From Minisyncoccota bacterium (lineage in GTDB: Bacteria > Patescibacteriota > Minisyncoccia > Phycocordibacterales > UBA918): 64,000 bases of DNA. The stretch is taken from the NCBI GenBank assembly GCA_021129515.1, contig JAJOLD010000001.1, forward strand, positions 61,633 to 125,632. Reading direction: 5' to 3'. The notes under the pieces are model-generated. The model saw only the letters and a program-made list of their open reading frames with translations, did no database searches and was not told the origin of the DNA. Position numbers and translations under genes: made by a program. Position 1 is the stretch's first letter. Every line of letters starts with the position of its first letter. Below are positions 2,743-47,625 of this stretch, one piece after another.

Positions 2743-5382
2743 ATGGCATCAAAAAAACAACCAAAAACTGGCTGGCATGCACGCGATGACGAACACATCA
2801 TCATCCGCGGCGCACGCACACACAACCTCAAAAATATTGACGTCGATATGCCACGCAACAAACTGGTGGTGATTACTGGACTTTCTGGATCGGGCAAGTC
2901 ATCACTTGCATTTGACACTATCTTTGCAGAAGGGCAGCGACGCTATATTGAATCACTATCAGCATACGCACGACAGTTTCTTCGGCAAATGCAAAAACCC
3001 GACATCGATGAAATCTCAGGGCTTTCTCCCGCTATTTCAATTGACCAAAAGTCAGCATCGCGCAATCCACGCTCCACTGTAGCGACCATTACCGAAATAT
3101 ATGACTATTTGCGCATCCTCTATGCGCGCATAGGGCAACCCTACTGTATTGATACCGATGTACCTATTCAAAAACTCTCACAAGATGAGATTTTAGGTAT
3201 TATATTGAAGTCAATCGAAGAAAAAGAAATCAAAAAAGCGACCAAGGCCTCTGCTCAAGAGGTCATGGGTGTGTCAGTAAGTACCGCAAAGGTAGCCATT
3301 TTTTCACCAGTAGTTGTTGGAAGAAAAGGTGAATACTACCAACTTCTCTACGATTTGCTCGGTAAAGGCTACGAAACGGTCAAAATCGATGGGGAAGTGA
3401 AGCAGCTTCGTGAGAAAATCACCCTGAGCAAAACAAAACGCCATGACATAGATGTGCTCATCGACAAAATCTATGTCAGTGAGTTTACAGACGATCCTAA
3501 AGGATCAAAAGAGCGTCTTTCAGAAGCGGTAGAACTCGCACTCAAAGAATCTGAGGGTCTGGTCAAAATTGAGAACCCTGATGGCACCGAGCGCACCCTC
3601 TCTGCAAAATTTATTTGTCCGGTTGATGGCTCCTCATTCCCAGAGGTAGAGCCACGCCTTTTTTCTTTCAATTCGCCCTATGGTGCCTGTGAGGAGTGTA
3701 ATGGACTTGGTACCGTGGGTCTCTTTAATACTGACATTTGTCCAAGTTGTAAGGGTGCACGACTCCGCAAAGAAGCACTTCGGGTATATCTTGGTGGCGA
3801 TGGTAAAAAAGATTTAGGTAAGAACATTGTCGATTTCACCTCTATGACCATCGAGGAAGCCGCTGACTTTATCGCCAATCTCAAACTCAGTAAAACAGAA
3901 CAAGACATTGCATGGCCTGCATTACGTGAAATCATTGAACGCTTGCAGTTTATGATAAATGTTGGTATTGAATACCTCACACTCGATAGACGTGCGAACA
4001 CCCTCTCAGGTGGTGAAGCACAGCGTATTAGGCTTGCCTCACAACTCGGTTCAGGACTGGTAGGAGCACTCTATGTGCTTGATGAACCCACAATAGGGCT
4101 CCATCAACGCGATAATGACCGCCTCATAAAAACCCTTACCGAACTGCGTGACCTTGGCAATACCATCGTCGTAGTCGAGCACGACGAAGACACTATCTAT
4201 GCAGCAGATTATATCGTTGACATTGGTCCTGGAGCAGGAGTCCATGGGGGAGAAGTGGTTGTGTCTGGCTATCTCGACACGTTGCTCGATGCAAAAACCA
4301 ATCCTTCAAAGTCGGTCACACTTGACTATCTCCGCGGAGACAGAGCCATCCCCATACCTGAGCAACGACGAGATGCAGAAAAGGGCTCCCTCAAAATTCG
4401 CGGTGGCAAAGCATTCAACATCAAAAACGCGCAGATAGATATACCGTTGGGTAGATTTATTGCTGTTACGGGTGTTTCAGGATCAGGAAAGTCAACATTT
4501 ATGTATGAAATTGTACACAAAAACCTCAGGTCACGCCTTGATAAAAAATACCGCACCCCAGATACCTACAACGCAAAAAGCGTTACCGGCACCGAGTATC
4601 TTGGGCGCACTATCCTTATAGACCAGTCACCAATTGGGCGCACTCCACGCTCTAACCCTGCGACATATACAGGTGCATTTACCCATATTCGTGATTTATT
4701 TGCCGCAACCAGTGAGGCACGCGCGCGCGGTTGGAAATCTGGACGATTTTCTTTTAACGTCAAAGGTGGTCGGTGTGAGGCGTGTCAGGGTAATGGTATG
4801 GTTGCTATTGAGATGCATTTTTTGCCAACTGTGTATGTAACCTGTGACGTTTGCAACGGCACCCGATTTACCAAAGAAACACTCGACGTTACCTATAAAG
4901 ACAAAAATATCCACGAGGTACTCCATATGACCATTGAAGAAGCCGACAACTTTTTCATTGACGTACCAGCTATTCATGAGCGACTTAAGGCGCTCCTCGA
5001 CGTCGGACTTGGTTATCTTGAGCTTGGACAAAGCGCAACGACACTCTCTGGAGGGGAAGCACAGCGTGTCAAAATTGCGTCAGAGCTCTATCGTCCACAT
5101 ACAAGCAAAACCATGTACCTACTCGATGAACCGACTATCGGACTGCATTACGAAGATGTTCGAAAATTAATTGAAATTCTCCAAGAATTGGTCAACCGAG
5201 GCAACACCGTTATGGTCATTGAGCACAATCTTGACCTTATTAAATGCGCAGACTATATCATTGACATTGGACCTGAGGGTGGCGCACGCGGTGGCAACAT
5301 CGTTGCAAAGGGTACACCGGAAGATGTGGCTAAAAACAAAGACTCTTTCACCGGTCACTATCTCAAAAAGCTTTTGAAATAG
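2743..5382 (+). CDS. uvrA: Excinuclease ABC subunit A
   Basis: Two ABC ATPase modules ([12 protein letters not shown]..., [12 protein letters not shown]...), LSGGEAQR signatures and Cys-rich zinc-finger segments; 879 aa. Confidence 0.95.
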
Positions 5383-37016: not shown

Positions 37017-38120
37017 TTAGCATGCTGTACGCCGTTGGTAGCGTGACACACTGAGAATAATACCCACCGCAGTAAGCGTCGCCAACAACGCAGTTCCACC
37101 ATGACTAATAAACGGCAACGGCAATCCCGACAACGGTGCCAGCGCAAGCATGGCAGCAATATTGAGAAAGGCTTGTACCAATATTAGTGTTATGAAGCCA
37201 ACAACAAGCAACATACCAAAGAGATCTTTTGCATGCGAAGCAATACGGTAGCCTCTAAAACCAAGTACCGTAAAGAGCATAATGAGCACCACACTTCCTA
37301 TAAATCCAAACTCTTCCGCATACACGGCAAACACGGAGTCTCCGATAGGCTCTGGAAGATACTCAAATTTTTGAATACTTTGTCCAAAACCACGTCCCAC
37401 CGCACCACCTGAACCAACGGCAATGAGTGATTGATGTATCTGATAACTCGACCCCTGCGGATCAATGGTGGGATCAAAAAAGGTAGTAATTCTGTCCATG
37501 ATGTATGGTCTGGAAAATGCCAATGCAGCAATAAGCACGACACCGGCAAGCACCATTAAACACACATCACGCAGTCGCCCTCCTGCGGTAATAAACATTG
37601 CCACACCTGCGGCACACATAATTGCGTACGTATCTGTATCGGGCTGCAAGAGCATCACCACCCCTACTAACGCAGTAATACCAACAAACGGCAAGGTACC
37701 CCGCACAAACTTCTTCACGTGTGTGTGCATACCAGAGAGCCAGGTTGCCATATAAATCACAAAGGCTATTTTAAGGAATTCTGCCGGTTGAAATGAAAAA
37801 CCACCGAGCAAAATCCACCGCTTGGCACCACCATGACTCATGCCGAGCCCCGGAATAAACACCAAAAGTGTTAGCAGGAGTGCCCCAACAAATATATAAA
37901 AGGCATATTTTCTCCAAAAACGGTAATGCATGGAACTGGTAATAAAAAGCGCAATAGACCCACCGACAATACCGAACAGTCCGTGATTCAACGCAACCGA
38001 AGAAAACCGTGCACCCGAACGCGAGAGCAGCCCGAGTGACGCAGATGAAAATATAAAGAATCCCATGACCACGAGTATGATTACAATCGTGAGGAGTGTT
38101 CTATCAATTTTTTTAGGCAT
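37017..38120 (-). CDS. ftsW: FtsW/RodA/SpoVE (SEDS) family protein
   Basis: About 10 TM helices, SEDS motifs; start MPKKIDR at 38120. Confidence 0.85.
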   Translation of the reverse strand: MPKKIDRTLLTIVIILVVMGFFIFSSASLGLLSRSGARFSSVALNHGLFGIVGGSIALFITSSMHYRFWRKYAFYIFVGALLLTLLVFIPGLGMSHGGAKRWILLGGFSFQPAEFLKIAFVIYMATWLSGMHTHVKKFVRGTLPFVGITALVGVVMLLQPDTDTYAIMCAAGVAMFITAGGRLRDVCLMVLAGVVLIAALAFSRPYIMDRITTFFDPTIDPQGSSYQIHQSLIAVGSGGAVGRGFGQSIQKFEYLPEPIGDSVFAVYAEEFGFIGSVVLIMLFTVLGFRGYRIASHAKDLFGMLLVVGFITLILVQAFLNIAAMLALAPLSGLPLPFISHGGTALLATLTAVGIILSVSRYQRRTAC

Positions 38121-41837: not shown

Positions 41838-43265
41838 TTAATATTGTTCCAAAAATCGAACCAGGAGTCGGACCGGTTCTCCGGTTGCGCCTTTTGCGAG
41901 TTTGTCTGAGGGAACAGCATCCATACGTGGCGCCATATCGATATGTGCCCAAGGCACATCCTTCGGCGCAAAGTGTGAGAGAAACGTCCCACCTTCGATA
42001 CAGCCACCCCATCGAGAAAAATTTGGTGCCATATTTGCAATGTCCGCCCGCGTACTCTTCAGGTGTGCTTTGTATTCATCCCAGAGCGGCAGTGGCCACG
42101 TGTAATCGCCACTTTCCTCACCGAGCTCTTTGAGCTTCGCTTCAAGCTTCGCATCTTTAGTCATGCAGGCGCTTGCGTGTTGACCGAGTGCTACAAGTGA
42201 TGCCCCGGTCAGTGTTGCAACATCGAGCATAACACGTGGATTGTACTTTGTTACGTATGAGATACCGTCAGCGAGCACCAAGCGCCCCTCAGCGTCGGTG
42301 TGAATGACCTCAATGGTTTTTCCTGCATGTGAACCAATAATATCGCCTGCGCGCATTGAGCGGTCTGAAATAGAGTTTTCAGCAGCAGGGACAACTGCCA
42401 CAATGTTTTTCTTAAGTCCCAGCTTTGCAGCACATACAATACTCGCAATAACTGCTGCACCCCCCGACATATCGAGGTGCATCTCATGCATAGCGCCTGC
42501 TGGTTTTACATTAAGCCCACCTGAATCATAGGTAATGCCTTTCCCAACAAGCGCAATAGGCTGCTTCTTTTTGTCTTTTGTTCCTTTGGTTGGCTTTCCT
42601 GCGCCGTAGTACTCCATGAGAATAAAGCACGGAAGGTCGTCAGCTCCTTTCCCCACTGCCCAGAGTGCTGGGAAGTCTTTCTTTACCTTTTTGTGGTCAA
42701 AGATGGTGACTTTCACACCCGTTCCTCGTGCAAGTTTTTGTGTGGTTTTGCCGAGGATTGACGGCGTCATGTCGTCACCCGTGGTATTGGCAATATCACG
42801 TGCCTGGTTGGTGTACTCGCCGACGGTGCGTCCTTCGGTAAATGCTTTTTTCTCCTTTGGGCTCATGCTGCCACAAACAAGTACTTCTGTAAGTTTTTTC
42901 TGCTTGGCAGTACTCGTTTTGTACTTCGTGAACTCATACGCTGCAATAGTGAGATTCTCTGCGAGTGTACGCATCATCCAGGTATCACCATGCTCTGCAA
43001 GTTTCGGGAATACTGTGTTTGAGAGTTGCAGTGCAAGATGTTCTATCTGGTGGCTCTGTGCTGCCTGCACAATGGTCCGCACAAAGATGATAAACCCGCG
43101 TGGTGTCATATCCTTCCACTTCCCTGCACCCAGACGGTACTCAAGTGTGCCGTCCTTGCACTCAACAAGACGATGTACACTTGGTGCGTCTTCGGTTACA
43201 ACAAGCCGACAGTACTTCTTGTGCGCACCGGAAATATCCTTAGTCGTTGTCTTTATCTTCGTCAT
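41838..43265 (-). CDS. pepA: Leucyl aminopeptidase (M17)
   Basis: NTDAEGRL-type HTDAEGRLVLADG and VGKGITYDSGG motifs. Confidence 0.85.
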   Translation of the reverse strand: MTKIKTTTKDISGAHKKYCRLVVTEDAPSVHRLVECKDGTLEYRLGAGKWKDMTPRGFIIFVRTIVQAAQSHQIEHLALQLSNTVFPKLAEHGDTWMMRTLAENLTIAAYEFTKYKTSTAKQKKLTEVLVCGSMSPKEKKAFTEGRTVGEYTNQARDIANTTGDDMTPSILGKTTQKLARGTGVKVTIFDHKKVKKDFPALWAVGKGADDLPCFILMEYYGAGKPTKGTKDKKKQPIALVGKGITYDSGGLNVKPAGAMHEMHLDMSGGAAVIASIVCAAKLGLKKNIVAVVPAAENSISDRSMRAGDIIGSHAGKTIEVIHTDAEGRLVLADGISYVTKYNPRVMLDVATLTGASLVALGQHASACMTKDAKLEAKLKELGEESGDYTWPLPLWDEYKAHLKSTRADIANMAPNFSRWGGCIEGGTFLSHFAPKDVPWAHIDMAPRMDAVPSDKLAKGATGEPVRLLVRFLEQY

Positions 43266-44601
43266 TATCTTTAGTCTTAGAGAGTAATGTATCGATACGG
43301 TTAATATCGCGCGGGAAGTACGTTGCTTCCTTTACATTGTGTACACCCGTGAATTTTTGGGTGAGTCGTTCAAGACCGAGCCCAATACCGCCGTGTGGAG
43401 GCATGCCGTGTTTGAAGGCTTGGAGATAGTAGTCAAATTTTTCTGGCTCAAGCCCTTTTTCTTCAAGTCGAGCCACCACGTCATCGTACTTGTGGACACG
43501 CTGACTTCCTGAACACATCTCGAGTCCACGGAAGAGGAGGTCAAAGCTGCGGGTGAACTTGGGATCTTCAGGCTCTATATAGGTATAGAATGGTCGCTTG
43601 CTCGTTGGGAAATGTGTGACGAATACAAAATCTGAGTCAAGATTTTTGTTTACATACTCACAGAGAAATCGTTCATCTTCTGGTTCTAGGTCTGGTTCAT
43701 TGGTCTTGTCAACGCCTGTTTCTTTAAGGATGAGCTCTTGCGCTTCGCGAAGTGTAAACACGGGGAATGCCTCGGGAGCTTTTGCCGGTTCCATCTCAAG
43801 AAGCGTGAGTTCGTCCGCGCATTCAGTCGCAACAGCATCTGCAACAGCACGCATGAGTTTTGTGGTCATATCCATCACATCGGTATGGTCTTTAATGAAT
43901 CCCATCTCGAAATCAAGCATGGCGATTTCGCTGAGGTGGCGTGAGGTGGCACTTCGTTCTGCACGGAAGGTAGTACCAGTTGCAAACACGCGTTCGAATA
44001 CACCGACGAGGATTTGTTTGTAGAGTTGTGGGCTGGTTGCAAGGAACGCGTCTTGGTCGTTGAAGTACTCTACCTTAAACACTTCCGCACCTCCTTCAGC
44101 ATCTCCTCCGACAAGCTTTGGTGTTTGAAACTCAGTAAACCCTTCTCCAGCAAGGAATGAACGGAATGTGTTTACTATTGTGTGCTGTACTTTAAAAATT
44201 GCTTGCTCATGCTCACGGCGAAGCGTGATTGGTCGATAGTCAAGGAGTGTGTCGATAGTGAGCTCACTCTCAAGATCAAAGGGCAGTGCATGTGCTTCGT
44301 TGAGGACTTCGATACCAGTGATTTCAATTTCAATATCACCATTTTGCACATCTGCTTTGCGCATGTTTTCTGGTCGTTCGTTGACCACTCCCGTAATAGC
44401 AACCACCCATTCGGCCTTAAGTGTCTTTGCCACCTCAAGCACTTCGGGTTTCCCAAAGACCACCCCCTGCACTTTCCCCGTGCGGTCACGAAAGTCGAAG
44501 AACGCCATCTTTCCTTGATTGCGTTCAGTGTCTACCCAACATTGAATAGTCACTTCCTTTCCTGTATGTTCCGACAAATCTGTAATCAATATTCTCTCCA
44601 T
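43240..44601 (-). CDS. aspS: Aspartyl-tRNA synthetase (short, archaeal/type-2-like length)
   Basis: Class II motifs FRAE...RH, GGIGLGLERL; TSPQLYKQ (the AspRS QSPQ signature). ATG at 44601 has an AAGAAAAGG SD. Confidence 0.85.
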   Translation of the reverse strand: MERILITDLSEHTGKEVTIQCWVDTERNQGKMAFFDFRDRTGKVQGVVFGKPEVLEVAKTLKAEWVVAITGVVNERPENMRKADVQNGDIEIEITGIEVLNEAHALPFDLESELTIDTLLDYRPITLRREHEQAIFKVQHTIVNTFRSFLAGEGFTEFQTPKLVGGDAEGGAEVFKVEYFNDQDAFLATSPQLYKQILVGVFERVFATGTTFRAERSATSRHLSEIAMLDFEMGFIKDHTDVMDMTTKLMRAVADAVATECADELTLLEMEPAKAPEAFPVFTLREAQELILKETGVDKTNEPDLEPEDERFLCEYVNKNLDSDFVFVTHFPTSKRPFYTYIEPEDPKFTRSFDLLFRGLEMCSGSQRVHKYDDVVARLEEKGLEPEKFDYYLQAFKHGMPPHGGIGLGLERLTQKFTGVHNVKEATYFPRDINRIDTLLSKTKDNDEDKDND

Positions 44602-44617
44602 ACCTTTTCTTGTTACG

Positions 44618-44636
44618 TACAAGGTCCGACCTTGTA
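44618..44636. repeat. Diverged family-C-like palindrome (TACAAGGTC-c-GACCTTGTA) between the T-box terminator and the aspS RBS
   Basis: 9-bp perfect arms; shares the GGTC.GACC core with the RAYT-2 flanking palindromes. Confidence 0.5.
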
Positions 44637-44639
44637 GAT

Positions 44640-44990
44640 TTAATAGTGAATAAAAAACACCCCTACAAACAAACCATAACCCTTAAGGAATGATGTGTTT
44701 GTAGGGGCGCTCGTGGCGCGGTGCCACCCTACGTTCTCCAACCGTATGCAAAGCACATGGTATAGGACTTCATTGTGCGTGTGTCGTACGCGAACGGAGG
44801 GTTCTACTCAATGGGCAACGTTGTATTGACTGCGACATCCAGCAATTTGCTTTAGGTAAGAAGCAAATTGGGATGAAAATTCGCAATAGTCGCGTACGCT
44901 CGTTTACTCATTTTTCCTCCCTCACCTCAGCAGAGTTAGCTGCATCATAGGTGTAGCATCAATACTAGGATGAGCGCTACAATTTGTCAA
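44640..44990 (-). ncRNA. Putative T-box riboswitch leader of aspS, including its promoter and terminator
   Basis: Minus strand: TTGACA-17-TAGTAT promoter (44990-44962); T-box sequence UAGGGUGGCACCGCG (complement of 44717-44730); terminator hairpin CCCCUACAAACA...UGUUUGUAGGGG followed by a U-run (44707-44652). Confidence 0.6.
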
Positions 44991-44995
44991 AGTGT

Positions 44996-46000
44996 TTAGA
45001 ATGTAATGCCAATAGCTTCTCGCACACGAGCAAGTTGTTGGTGCGATACTTCGCGCGCCTTAGTTACCCCTATTTCGAGCACCTGCTCAATATCAGCATC
45101 AGAGATGTTTTTATAATTTTCTCGCATTGGGGCAACCACAGCTTCGATATCTGCGACAAGTGCTTTCTTGAGGTCTCCGTAGCGTCCTTCATGTTCTGTA
45201 TAGAGCGTTTCAAGTTCTGCTTCATCCTTAAATAGTTTGTGGATGGCATATACGTTCTCAGGGCGCTTCCCTTCAGAGTCGGTTACGATACCCATCACGG
45301 CTTTGCTGATTTCTTCTTCTGACCCAAAGAGTGGGATAGTGTTTTTGTAACTCTTACTCATTTTTGCGCCATCAGTACCAGGCACCACACCAACAGCTTT
45401 GAGAATAAGCTCTTTTGGTTCTTTTAGTGTTCCACCGTAGGTATTGTTAAATTTGGTTGCGGCTTCGCGGGTGTATTCGAGGTGCTGCCGTTGATCTTCT
45501 CCTACCGGTACCACATCAGCATTATAGAGCATGATGTCTGCCGCCATAAGCATTGGGTAGGTAAAGAGTCCTGCATTTGCTTCAAGACCTTTTGCAACCT
45601 TATCTTTATAGGCATGTGCTTGCATCAAAAAGGGCACGGTCACCAGACAATTAAGGATCCATGCAAGTTCCATATGGTCTTGATTATCTGATTGTCGAAA
45701 TAGGGTTACCTTTTCTGAGTCTATCCCTGCTGCAAGGTAGGTGCGCACAATGTCATATATATTGGCACGAAGTGCCTCTTTGTCGCGAATAGACGTGAGC
45801 GCATGATAGTCAGCAACCATGAGGAAGCTCTCATATTCCTCATACATATCCTGAAATGGCTTGAGTGACCCAAAGTAGTTCCCAATATGAAGCGTGCCTG
45901 AAGGTTGGAGACCAGTGAGTAACACTTGCTTCTTTTGCTCGCTTGGAAGAACGATACTATCATCTCGCTCGGAAGTAAGTAATCGTGTTTTCTGTGACAT
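44996..46000 (-). CDS. trpS: Tryptophanyl-tRNA synthetase
   Basis: GLQPSGTLHIGNY (HIGH-like) and KMSKS. Confidence 0.9.
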   Translation of the reverse strand: MSQKTRLLTSERDDSIVLPSEQKKQVLLTGLQPSGTLHIGNYFGSLKPFQDMYEEYESFLMVADYHALTSIRDKEALRANIYDIVRTYLAAGIDSEKVTLFRQSDNQDHMELAWILNCLVTVPFLMQAHAYKDKVAKGLEANAGLFTYPMLMAADIMLYNADVVPVGEDQRQHLEYTREAATKFNNTYGGTLKEPKELILKAVGVVPGTDGAKMSKSYKNTIPLFGSEEEISKAVMGIVTDSEGKRPENVYAIHKLFKDEAELETLYTEHEGRYGDLKKALVADIEAVVAPMRENYKNISDADIEQVLEIGVTKAREVSHQQLARVREAIGITF

Positions 46001-46073: not shown

Positions 46074-47252
46074 TTATACCGTTGGCATTTCTACCGTAAA
46101 CGCAGAACCCTTTCCTTCTCCTTCTGACGTTACCGCTATCGCACCTCCCATTTCCTCAACCATCTTCTTTGCAACAAACAGTCCGAGTCCAGTGCCAGTT
46201 GTATTTATATTGTTTGCATTTTTTGCACGCACAAACTTATCAAACACATCTTCAAGTGCTGTGGCATCCATCCCCACACCGGCATCTTGTACAGTGATGC
46301 GCATCTTTTTGGTAGCGACATCGTTGTGTGCAATCACGTCAATACTTCCCTTTGGGGTGTATTTCATAGCATTATCAACAAGATTTTGAATGACCTGCCG
46401 CATTTTACCAATATCGGCATTGACCACACACGACCCATCGCAATCTGAACGATACATGAGCACCAAACCTTTCTTCACTGCAGTTGGACGCATATCATCA
46501 ACAAGTTTTTCAGTCTCCTCGGCAAGGTTAAAGTCGCTCATTTCATAGCACATATTACCTGCTTCAATCCGAGACACATTCAAATAATCCTCAATGGAGA
46601 GCGCCATAAACCTGCTCGACTCAGCAATACGCTCCACCGCCTCAGTTGATTTTTTTGAGAGTGCACCAAATGAACCTTCAAGCAGCATTGAGGTATATCC
46701 ACGAATAGCCGTAAGCGGACTCCTGAGTTGGTGCGATGCAATCGAAACAAACTCTGACTTCATCTTATCGAGCACCTTGAGCTTTTCGTCTGCCTGCGCA
46801 AGCATCGCTGCTGACTCTTTTAAAGACGCAGTATACCGTCTCGACGTCATAATAATGATGAGCGTCAAAATAGTAATCAATAGAATCAAAAAGATGATAA
46901 ATATCAAAAATGGAAGGAGTGTCTGTGTGATGATGGTGAAGAAGTCGTCAGCCTTAATATCAGTTGCAATGACTGCCGCGACCGAATAGAATGATTCGGT
47001 GTAGCTAAAGGCGAGCGCTTCCTGCAAGTGACCAATCGCAATATCTTGCAACATCTGACTCACCGCAACACCGACAGCAAACAACACCAACTTTATGCGG
47101 TATGACCACTTACTAAAGGCGGTATACCCATCTGCCATCCCAAACAGTATAAGTCCTACTACAGTGACCAAAATCGCTATCATTTGTCCTGTAGAGACAC
47201 TGTCGGTATATATCGAAAATTGTGCAAGAAGTATGGAAAGCACCAACACCAC
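46074..47252 (-). CDS. Sensor histidine kinase (no response regulator gene seen in the window)
   Basis: H-box SHQLRSPLTAIRGY; N, G1 and G2 boxes (NAMKYT, DAGVGM, GTGLGL); N-terminal TM segments. Confidence 0.85.
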   Translation of the reverse strand: MVLVLSILLAQFSIYTDSVSTGQMIAILVTVVGLILFGMADGYTAFSKWSYRIKLVLFAVGVAVSQMLQDIAIGHLQEALAFSYTESFYSVAAVIATDIKADDFFTIITQTLLPFLIFIIFLILLITILTLIIIMTSRRYTASLKESAAMLAQADEKLKVLDKMKSEFVSIASHQLRSPLTAIRGYTSMLLEGSFGALSKKSTEAVERIAESSRFMALSIEDYLNVSRIEAGNMCYEMSDFNLAEETEKLVDDMRPTAVKKGLVLMYRSDCDGSCVVNADIGKMRQVIQNLVDNAMKYTPKGSIDVIAHNDVATKKMRITVQDAGVGMDATALEDVFDKFVRAKNANNINTTGTGLGLFVAKKMVEEMGGAIAVTSEGEGKGSAFTVEMPTV

Positions 47253-47268
47253 AACACCACCATAGGTG

Positions 47269-47625
47269 TTACCCCCTCATACAACGACAATTCTGTAGCA
47301 CCCCCACAAGTTTAGCTTCCCGTGTATCTGCAGGAAACATCACCAAGAAATAGAACCAGTTTGCCCAAATCAGGACAACACCTGCCATGCATGCAATGCC
47401 AGCGGGCAGCAACGGCACCAGGTGCCAATGTACATTCCACGCAACAAACGGATAGTTATCAACAAATGTAAAAATGAACATCGGCACAGTAAGCAGCGGT
47501 ACAATCGCACTGACAATCATCGCATGTGCCGACCGAGTATATACCTTTAAGCCTGCAAAGACGATATCCATGATATAGAACAGCCCCATTGCAAGGGCAC
47601 TTACCAATGCAAATTGATAGTGCAT
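47269..47625 (-). CDS. Hypothetical membrane protein
   Basis: Four predicted TM helices. Confidence 0.5.
   Translation of the reverse strand: MHYQFALVSALAMGLFYIMDIVFAGLKVYTRSAHAMIVSAIVPLLTVPMFIFTFVDNYPFVAWNVHWHLVPLLPAGIACMAGVVLIWANWFYFLVMFPADTREAKLVGVLQNCRCMRG

Follow-up and report, generated by a model that had tools for sequence, protein, structure and literature searches.

A predicted T-box riboswitch with an ultrashort Stem I and an intrinsic terminator upstream of aspS in Patescibacteria

T-box riboswitches are usually treated as a trait of the Firmicutes, the Actinobacteria and a few other phyla. The Patescibacteria (CPR) have very small genomes with few recognisable regulators, and a search of the literature found no paper linking T-boxes to this group. 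In Clostridium acetobutylicum, Saad et al. are said to have described (JBC 2012, PNAS 2013) an Asn T-box, or 'NT-box', in a tRNA-dependent amidation operon, where a T-box with an AAC specifier reportedly controls a non-discriminating AspRS. That element is reportedly a canonical long-Stem-I T-box of the Firmicute kind with a two-codon specifier loop, and its operon is said also to encode GatCAB. T-boxes with an 'ultrashort' Stem I have reportedly been described as well, by Sherwood in 2015.

Four classes of T-box are defined in PMC10482949. In class III, represented by ileS of N. farcinica, Stem I is short and has no elbow platform, the specifier lies in a penta- or hexanucleotide apical loop and Stem II is required; classes III and IV 'mostly regulate translation initiation' (PMC10482949). 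T-boxes that act on transcription have been argued generally to need a long Stem I, or elbow platform, for fast capture of the tRNA (PMC7583486). The short-Stem-I model of TBDB was run only in Actinobacteria (PMC7778990).

The leader described here lies upstream of aspS on the minus strand of a 64-kb stretch of DNA (the window, by which we mean the whole stretch analysed). On sequence evidence it is a true T-box riboswitch built to the short-Stem-I (class III) plan. With the class III ileS elements of Nocardia farcinica and Mycobacterium tuberculosis (PDB 6UFM, 6UFG) it shares a K-turn Stem I of about 30 nt that lacks the elbow-binding double T-loop and presents the specifier in an apical loop of six nucleotides; in both, a Stem II that contains an S-turn comes immediately 3' of Stem I. 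A compact pseudoknot, IIA/B, which measures about 20 nt and has an F-box-like segment that reads CCG(A/U)NA in class III, is also common to both (PMC10482949, PMC7583486, PMC10651847), as are Stem III and the T-box discriminator; the comparison is with published descriptions of the actinobacterial RNAs. The leader differs from class III in its expression platform, which is an intrinsic terminator with a U run, an unusual partner for a short Stem I, and not a structure that sequesters the Shine-Dalgarno sequence, and in its Asn or Asp specifier, its gene (aspS) and its host group (Patescibacteria), in place of Ile, ileS and Actinobacteria. The pair that closes helix A2 is G-C in the leader, whereas it is G.U in class III.

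With class I (the B. subtilis tyrS type, modelled by RF00230) the leader has in common the T-box, the 7-nt bulge for the NCCA end of the tRNA and the competition between antiterminator and terminator, along with the K-turn, the Stem II S-turn, the IIA/B element and Stem III. It is, however, without the long Stem I, the internal specifier loop, the AG bulge and the distal loop platform, and its 29-nt Stem I is a single hairpin with a 6-nt loop. The class II glycine T-box of glyQS is likewise reduced and acts by transcription termination, but there the long Stem I is retained and it is Stem II that is missing, the reverse of what is seen here. Compared with the C. acetobutylicum element, the leader has an ultrashort Stem I and the operon partner of aspS is an aminopeptidase gene, not gatCAB.

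Genes and promoter around the leader

The aspS gene (43240-44601, minus strand) encodes a protein of 453 aa that matches the NCBIfam model NF003483 and was assigned on that match as an archaeal-type aspartate--tRNA(Asn) ligase. NF003483 and TIGR00458 are both 'aspartate--tRNA(Asn) ligase' equivalogs with curated cut-offs; in profile searches the product scored 497 bits with the former (cut-off 353) and 392 bits with the latter (cut-off 368), while AsnRS models scored under their cut-offs. The protein belongs to the non-discriminating AspRS family, and non-discriminating activity is predicted for it. Its relatives come from genome bins of Paceibacteria, Parcubacteria and other Patescibacteria, which assigns the window to a bacterium of the candidate phyla radiation. 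The start codon is an ATG at 44601 with AAAAGG just 5' of it. At the other end of the gene, pepA (41838-43265, minus strand), which encodes an M17 leucyl aminopeptidase, overlaps the aspS stop by 26 nt, and because of this overlap pepA is probably co-transcribed with aspS under the same control.

The gene order trpS-aspS-pepA, found at 41838-46000 on the minus strand of the window, is conserved among the related loci, numbered L001 to L066, with trpS adjoining aspS in 48 of them and pepA lying 3' of aspS in 21. Of the 45 species-representative loci, 34 are without a T-box, and in these aspS abuts trpS directly. The patchy occurrence of the leader and its promoter suggests insertion into an older operon or loss from it. 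A motif scan of the 64 kb found no T-box at the other synthetase genes of the window (trpS, pheS, pheT and gltX). Neither asnS, gatCAB nor an AspRS paralogue was found within the window, and tRNA genes are absent both from it and from 65 of the 66 related loci, the exception being L064, which carries a tRNA-Asp gene. A sensor histidine kinase gene (46074-47252, minus strand), preceded by a 118-aa ORF (47269-47625, minus strand), lies between pheST and trpS, so that a two-component gene is placed within a run of synthetase genes.

The minus-strand promoter TTGACA-17-TAGTAT given in a preliminary description of this locus is present at 44962-44990, as a sigma-70-like site with the -35 box at 44990-44985, a 17-nt spacer and the -10 box at 44967-44962 (10 of 12 matches). 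The -35 box lies 8 nt past the end of trpS. This was the sole promoter-like site found by a promoter scan of 44400-45200, and about one of such quality is expected by chance in an 800-nt region; the prediction gains weight only because homologous leaders carry TTGACC-17-TATAAT at an equal distance 5' of Stem I. Transcription would start at about 44955, a few nt 5' of Stem I, which gives about 354 nt from the start to the ATG and agrees with the leader length of about 350 nt proposed earlier.

Structure of the leader and its conservation

Stem I (44924-44952; this and all further features of the leader are on the minus strand) is ultrashort, with 29 nt, and was located by a structure-aware scan, by alignment and by folding; the minimum-free-energy fold of the single sequence also predicts it. 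It comprises a C-stem (ACC/GGU), a 3-nt bulge (UAU), the tandem G.A/A.G pairs of a K-turn (GA at 44946-44945 and GA at 44928-44927), a 4-bp helix (GCAG/CUGC) and an apical loop of 6 nt, CUAACU (44939-44934). Loop positions 3-5 hold AAC, an Asn codon (44935-44937), which is taken as the specifier by positional homology and is followed by U44934. We read the pattern ACC-UAU-GA...GA-GGU as a predicted K-turn hairpin that presents the codon in its apical loop. A GAC or GAU specifier flanked by a purine had been expected in Stem I from the preliminary description; neither that specifier nor a canonical long Stem I with an internal specifier loop is found here.

Among the relatives, Stem I is made up of a C-stem of 3 bp (ACC/GGU), a bulge of 3 nt, tandem GA/GA, a single unpaired pair and a helix of 3-4 bp, and the loop, of 5-9 nt and usually 6, reads YU-[G/A]AC-A (CUGACA in most). 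Of 33 leaders, 31 showed a K-turn hairpin with [G/A]AC in its loop in the structure-aware scan. In L048 and L051 the hairpin was assigned by eye; L051 has one mismatch in the C-stem and L048 has an extra hairpin inside the K-turn. Compensatory changes occur, in an alignment of 19 sequences, at three of the four pairs of the upper helix and two of the three pairs of the C-stem. The base after the specifier is U in the window, as opposed to the usual purine, and it is U also in L002 and in L058/L064.

The same alignment defines Stem II (44797-44923). Its base helix, GAGGG (44923-44919) with CCCUC (44801-44797), is 98.9% paired in the 19 sequences; the GGAGG/CCUCC pairing of the minimum-free-energy fold was dropped for this family-conserved version. 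Next comes an internal loop of AGGAAA (44918-44913) opposite GAGUAGAA (44809-44802), in which AGUAGAACCCUC is near-invariant across the alignment and an S-turn is predicted. An upper helix (AAUG/CAUU) follows, and then an apical extension of about 95 nt. The length of this extension ranges from about 20 to 110 nt among the relatives, and the sequence found in the window is common to L055 and L057. A search of the rest of the leader for a canonical Stem I or a GAC specifier turned up GAC in GCGACUAUUGCG, which lies in this variable extension of Stem II and forms no separate element, and it was rejected.

An H-type pseudoknot of 20 nt, Stem IIA/B, lies at 44777-44796. Alignment with MAFFT was unreliable at the pseudoknot and at Stem III, and the pseudoknot was read in 24 leaders by an anchor-based script. 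It consists of S1, CGU (44796-44794) with ACG (44787-44785), and S2, GCGU (44791-44788) with ACGC (44780-44777), and its F-box-like segment in the window is ACGACA. Both helices covary across the 24 leaders: the third pair of S1 is G-C in 15 and U-A in 6, and S2 is always of 3-4 bp, in 13 distinct sequence combinations. Stem III (44737-44767) is predicted by the minimum-free-energy fold as UCC-UAU-ACC-A-UGUGC UUU GCAUA-C-GGU-U-GGA, with a conserved AA (44735-44734) 3' of it; relatives have a hairpin at this place, followed by GAAGU. Its 5' flank, UGAAG, matches the RRRxG motif at four of five positions, and its 3' flank has one extra C before A1, to give GAACGU where the relatives have GAAGU. 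Thus the window departs from the family at conserved unpaired spots, namely the U after the codon, UGAAG and the extra C in GAACGU.

The T-box itself, AGGGUGGCACCGCG (44730-44717), agrees with the conserved 14-nt consensus, AGGGUGGNACCGCG, at 14 of 14 positions and is its single exact occurrence in the 64 kb; the motif had been correctly recognised in the preliminary description, but as a 14/15 match, which is wrong. By simple arithmetic, chance alone would yield a perfect 14-mer about 0.002 times in 128 kb. The only other T-box-like motif, with two mismatches at 37089-37102 (minus strand), lies inside an FtsW/RodA-like coding sequence and was discarded as a chance match. The 14-mer forms the 5' side of an antiterminator (44701-44732) that is predicted by both folding and alignment, with helix A1 formed by GUAGGG (44732-44727) and CCCUAC (44706-44701) and helix A2 by GCGC and GCGC (44719-44707). 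Between A1 and A2 is a 7-nt bulge of the UGGNACC type, UGGCACC (44726-44720), with C at the variable position (44723). The energy of the antiterminator is -12.4 kcal/mol, and both helices are 100% paired in the 19 aligned sequences, with one compensatory pair. The closing pair of A2 (44707/44719) is G-C in the window, as it is in 17 of the 19 sequences, and is G.U in two; a G.U wobble at this position is described as a steric sensor of aminoacylation (PMC7583486), a T-box feature that the window lacks.

An intrinsic terminator with a 14-bp basal stem and a U run is predicted at 44652-44709 from pairing energy and the U run. Here CGCCCCUACAAACA (44709-44696) pairs with UGUUUGUAGGGGUG (44671-44658), at -29.1 kcal/mol, and UUUUUU (44657-44652) follows. 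The stem can be counted as 12-14 bp, in line with the 12 bp claimed earlier. Its loop of 24 nt explains why a scan limited to hairpin loops of at most 8 nt missed it. Antiterminator and terminator have nine bases in common (44709-44701) and are mutually exclusive, as the T-box reading of the preliminary description requires. The terminator ends 50 nt 5' of the ribosome-binding site, with which it forms no base pairs; with respect to the upstream gene, the hairpin is 290 nt past the trpS stop and 3' of the promoter. Of 32 relatives, 27 have a terminator hairpin that is followed by a U-rich tail.

A T-box precedes aspS in 11 of the 45 species-representative loci, and 21 more leaders came from metagenomes scanned for the T-box together with the strand of the S-turn. 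This gives a total of 32 homologous leaders upstream of aspS, from Patescibacteria (Paceibacteria) genomes and metagenomes. For the five helices, 99.5% of the cells in the 19-sequence alignment are paired, and compensatory changes are seen at six of the 21 pairs. Covariation scores 0.207 in this alignment and 0.111 in shuffled ones, and none of 500 shuffles reached 0.207; in slid-alignment controls the paired fraction drops to 41-63%. A covariance model, R1, built from 18 relatives with the window left out, matched the window end to end at 44954-44701 (minus strand) with 83.4 bits (E=9.5e-26), the only significant match in the window. A second match of R1, of 8.7 bits at 3292-3424 (plus strand), falls inside uvrA and is ascribed to chance.

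A match to RF00230 had also been anticipated, and none was significant at the gathering score of 93; nor was this score reached by any of 20 related loci. Taken literally, this outcome triggers the refuting condition set in the preliminary description. In E-value mode on 801 nt, RF00230 gave 21.7 bits (E=0.014), well below the gathering score because the window lacks the class I features of Stem I. A forced alignment has 3 nt where 73 nt of Stem I are expected and 111 nt where 10 are expected, setting the short hairpin on Stem I and leaving a 111-nt gap in Stem II. RF00230 thus fails on this leader because Stem I is only 29 nt, and it is the wrong test for the short-Stem-I architecture. Other Rfam matches in E-value mode (SNORA44, mir-BART19 and GlsR14) were regarded as noise, and at gathering scores Rfam matched nothing in the window or in the 20 loci. 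The core T-box reading of the preliminary description is supported instead by the perfect T-box match, an antiterminator and a terminator that exclude each other, the 32 leaders with covariation and the leave-one-out model.

The effector tRNA and the mode of control

At the specifier position the 33 leaders have GAC in 28 cases, GAU in one (L039) and AAC in four, these being the window, L028, L041 and L053. Two independent assemblies agree at every base of the window leader, and the AAC is therefore not an assembly error. All four AAC leaders precede an AspRS gene and none an AsnRS gene; three of these enzymes are archaeal-type, and that of L041 is of the short bacterial type. The four leaders differ in architecture, which argues that AAC arose independently in each of them. 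In the window the change is recent, since L055, the closest relative by Stem II sequence, has GAC.

The best-fitting effector is most likely tRNA-Asn (anticodon GUU), because the specifier is AAC and tRNA-Asp would give an A-C mismatch at the first codon position. By established identity rules, bacterial tRNA-Asp and tRNA-Asn both carry G73. The pairing of the bulge C with G73, proposed in the preliminary description for tRNA-Asp, therefore stands in so far as UGGC fits G73, but the AAC specifier implies tRNA-Asn. One relative, L064, encodes a tRNA-Asp(GUC) (1913-1986) with G73 and no encoded CCA end, and the T-box of this relative combines GAC with UGGC. Sensing of tRNA-Asn would be sensible, as this enzyme family loads Asp onto tRNA-Asn, the first step of indirect Asn-tRNA synthesis. 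An Asn codon in front of an AspRS gene would be an independent, sequence-only hint at the indirect Asn-tRNA pathway in the source organism.

We consider it probable that transcription of aspS-pepA is attenuated by the T-box and that the attenuation is relieved by uncharged tRNA-Asn. The AAC in the 6-nt apical loop would bind uncharged tRNA-Asn(GUU) in a groove to which the S-turn of Stem II contributes, and the S-turn and the IIA/B pseudoknot would clamp the codon-anticodon helix. The 3' GCCA end of the uncharged tRNA would then pair with UGGC of the T-box bulge. This would keep the antiterminator, the weaker structure (-12.4 kcal/mol), from giving way to the terminator (-29.1 kcal/mol), and RNA polymerase would read on into aspS-pepA. 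A charged tRNA could not pair in this way, and transcription would stop at the U run (44657-44652). We infer tRNA binding, the identity of the tRNA and termination alike from the features of the leader. Control is placed at transcription, not translation, because a U run follows the hairpin and 50 nt separate the end of the hairpin from the ribosome-binding site. Of the tRNA-dependent antitermination of the Asp synthetase gene that had been put forward, the T-box leader core is supported and tRNA-Asp as the effector is not.

The same T-box and attenuation might still respond to tRNA-Asp, or to both tRNA-Asp and tRNA-Asn, which we judge unlikely but deserving of consideration. AAC would pair with the anticodon GUC at two of three positions, the aspS product charges tRNA-Asp too, UGGC fits G73 of tRNA-Asp, and GAC is the specifier in 28 of the 33 family members, the closest relative L055 included. 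Relaxed specifier reading is known as well, in that the AAA T-box of B. cereus lysK is partly induced by tRNA-Asn (PMC2916919). Set against this, the A-C mismatch would occupy the first position of a helix of only 3 bp, and the codon-anticodon helix is the main contact with the tRNA in class III T-boxes (PMC7583486, PMC11297988). Moreover, AAC has at least four origins before AspRS genes, which looks like selected switching and not drift. tRNA-Asn is thus the effector that we prefer.

Two further readings would deprive the leader of tRNA sensing altogether. In one, which we hold to be improbable, the T-box is a decaying or inactive relic, so that the terminator acts constitutively and partially or aspS is read through from trpS. 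The alteration in the window of single-stranded positions conserved in the family (the U after the codon, UGAAG and GAACGU) would fit such decay, and the 34 of 45 species-representative loci in which trpS abuts aspS with no T-box indicate that the element is dispensable in the lineage. However, every helix is preserved, as are the pseudoknot, the strand of the S-turn and all 14 nt of the T-box, the U 3' of the specifier recurs in L002 and L058/L064, and a terminator of -29 kcal/mol before an essential, single-copy synthetase gene would be harmful if there were no route to anti-termination. In the other, the hairpin would be a plain terminator after trpS or an element that sequesters the ribosome-binding site, and the T-box-like motif would be there by chance. 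That RF00230 did not reach its gathering score, and that class III T-boxes act mostly on translation (PMC10482949), would agree with it; yet the hairpin lies well past the trpS stop and 3' of the promoter and falls short of the ribosome-binding site with no pairing to it, the exact 14-mer has a negligible chance expectation and the family model scores 83 bits, and we find this reading very hard to credit. Attenuation by a T-box sensing tRNA-Asn remains the reading that we favour.

Relatives with other layouts

Several relatives carry leaders that are reduced further. In L041 (2792-2915, specifier AAC) a linker of 17 nt joins the short Stem I to Stem III and the antiterminator, and Stem II is missing. 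In L044 (2801-2944) and L005 (2781-2939) there is only a small hairpin in the place of Stem II, and L007 (2832-2945) and L027 (2815-2925) have a mini hairpin together with an exact CCGUUA F-box. L028 (2838-2950) retains the S-turn, while its pseudoknot and Stem III are absent. None of the four described classes comprises T-boxes that lack both the elbow platform and Stem II.

It is possible, and we suggest it tentatively, that Paceibacteria and their kin harbour an uncatalogued lineage of transcription-terminating T-boxes that lack the elbow platform and, in L041, L044 and L005, apparently lack Stem II too. If functional, such elements would contradict the view that co-transcriptional T-boxes need the distal platform of Stem I for fast tRNA capture, as well as the view that short Stem I forms require Stem II. 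The repeated GAC-to-AAC switches before AspRS genes would, again if functional, be natural evidence that AspRS is regulated by tRNA-Asn charging in cells that use the indirect pathway. The points of interest are the host lineage, the pairing with a terminator, the switching between Asp and Asn codons and the blind spot in Rfam. A short-Stem-I decoding module that has so far been studied as a translational switch of ileS would here occur also with an intrinsic terminator and with Asp/Asn specificity, and the combination of short Stem I and terminator offers a natural test of the kinetic need for the elbow contact. If the aspS leaders were included in the seed alignment for T-boxes, a family now overlooked in annotation would be recovered.

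Some minor features of individual relatives were also observed. In L064, two tRNA-Met genes lie near the tRNA-Asp(GUC) gene, about 3.5 kb upstream of the aspS T-box. Three relatives with a GAC specifier, L001 (2896), L060 (2130) and L066, have the bulge UGGU, not UGGC, and could pair with G73 only if a U.G wobble were formed. L055, whose Stem II extension is most like that of the window, has a terminator-like hairpin (downstream of 4340) and then AAAAACUUAAGUGAG before a U-rich stretch; its expression platform may work differently or be damaged. In L020 (2658-2996), and downstream of the terminators in L051, L056 and L059/L061, an acidic ORF of 100-112 aa precedes aspS. This ORF would be under the control of the aspS T-box, since it sits between the T-box terminator and aspS; it had no Pfam match and has a C-terminal hydrophobic II(I) motif. 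L039, in which the loop contains GAU/AUG and the bulge is UGGU, has a membrane-like ORF of 201 aa between the T-box and aspS.
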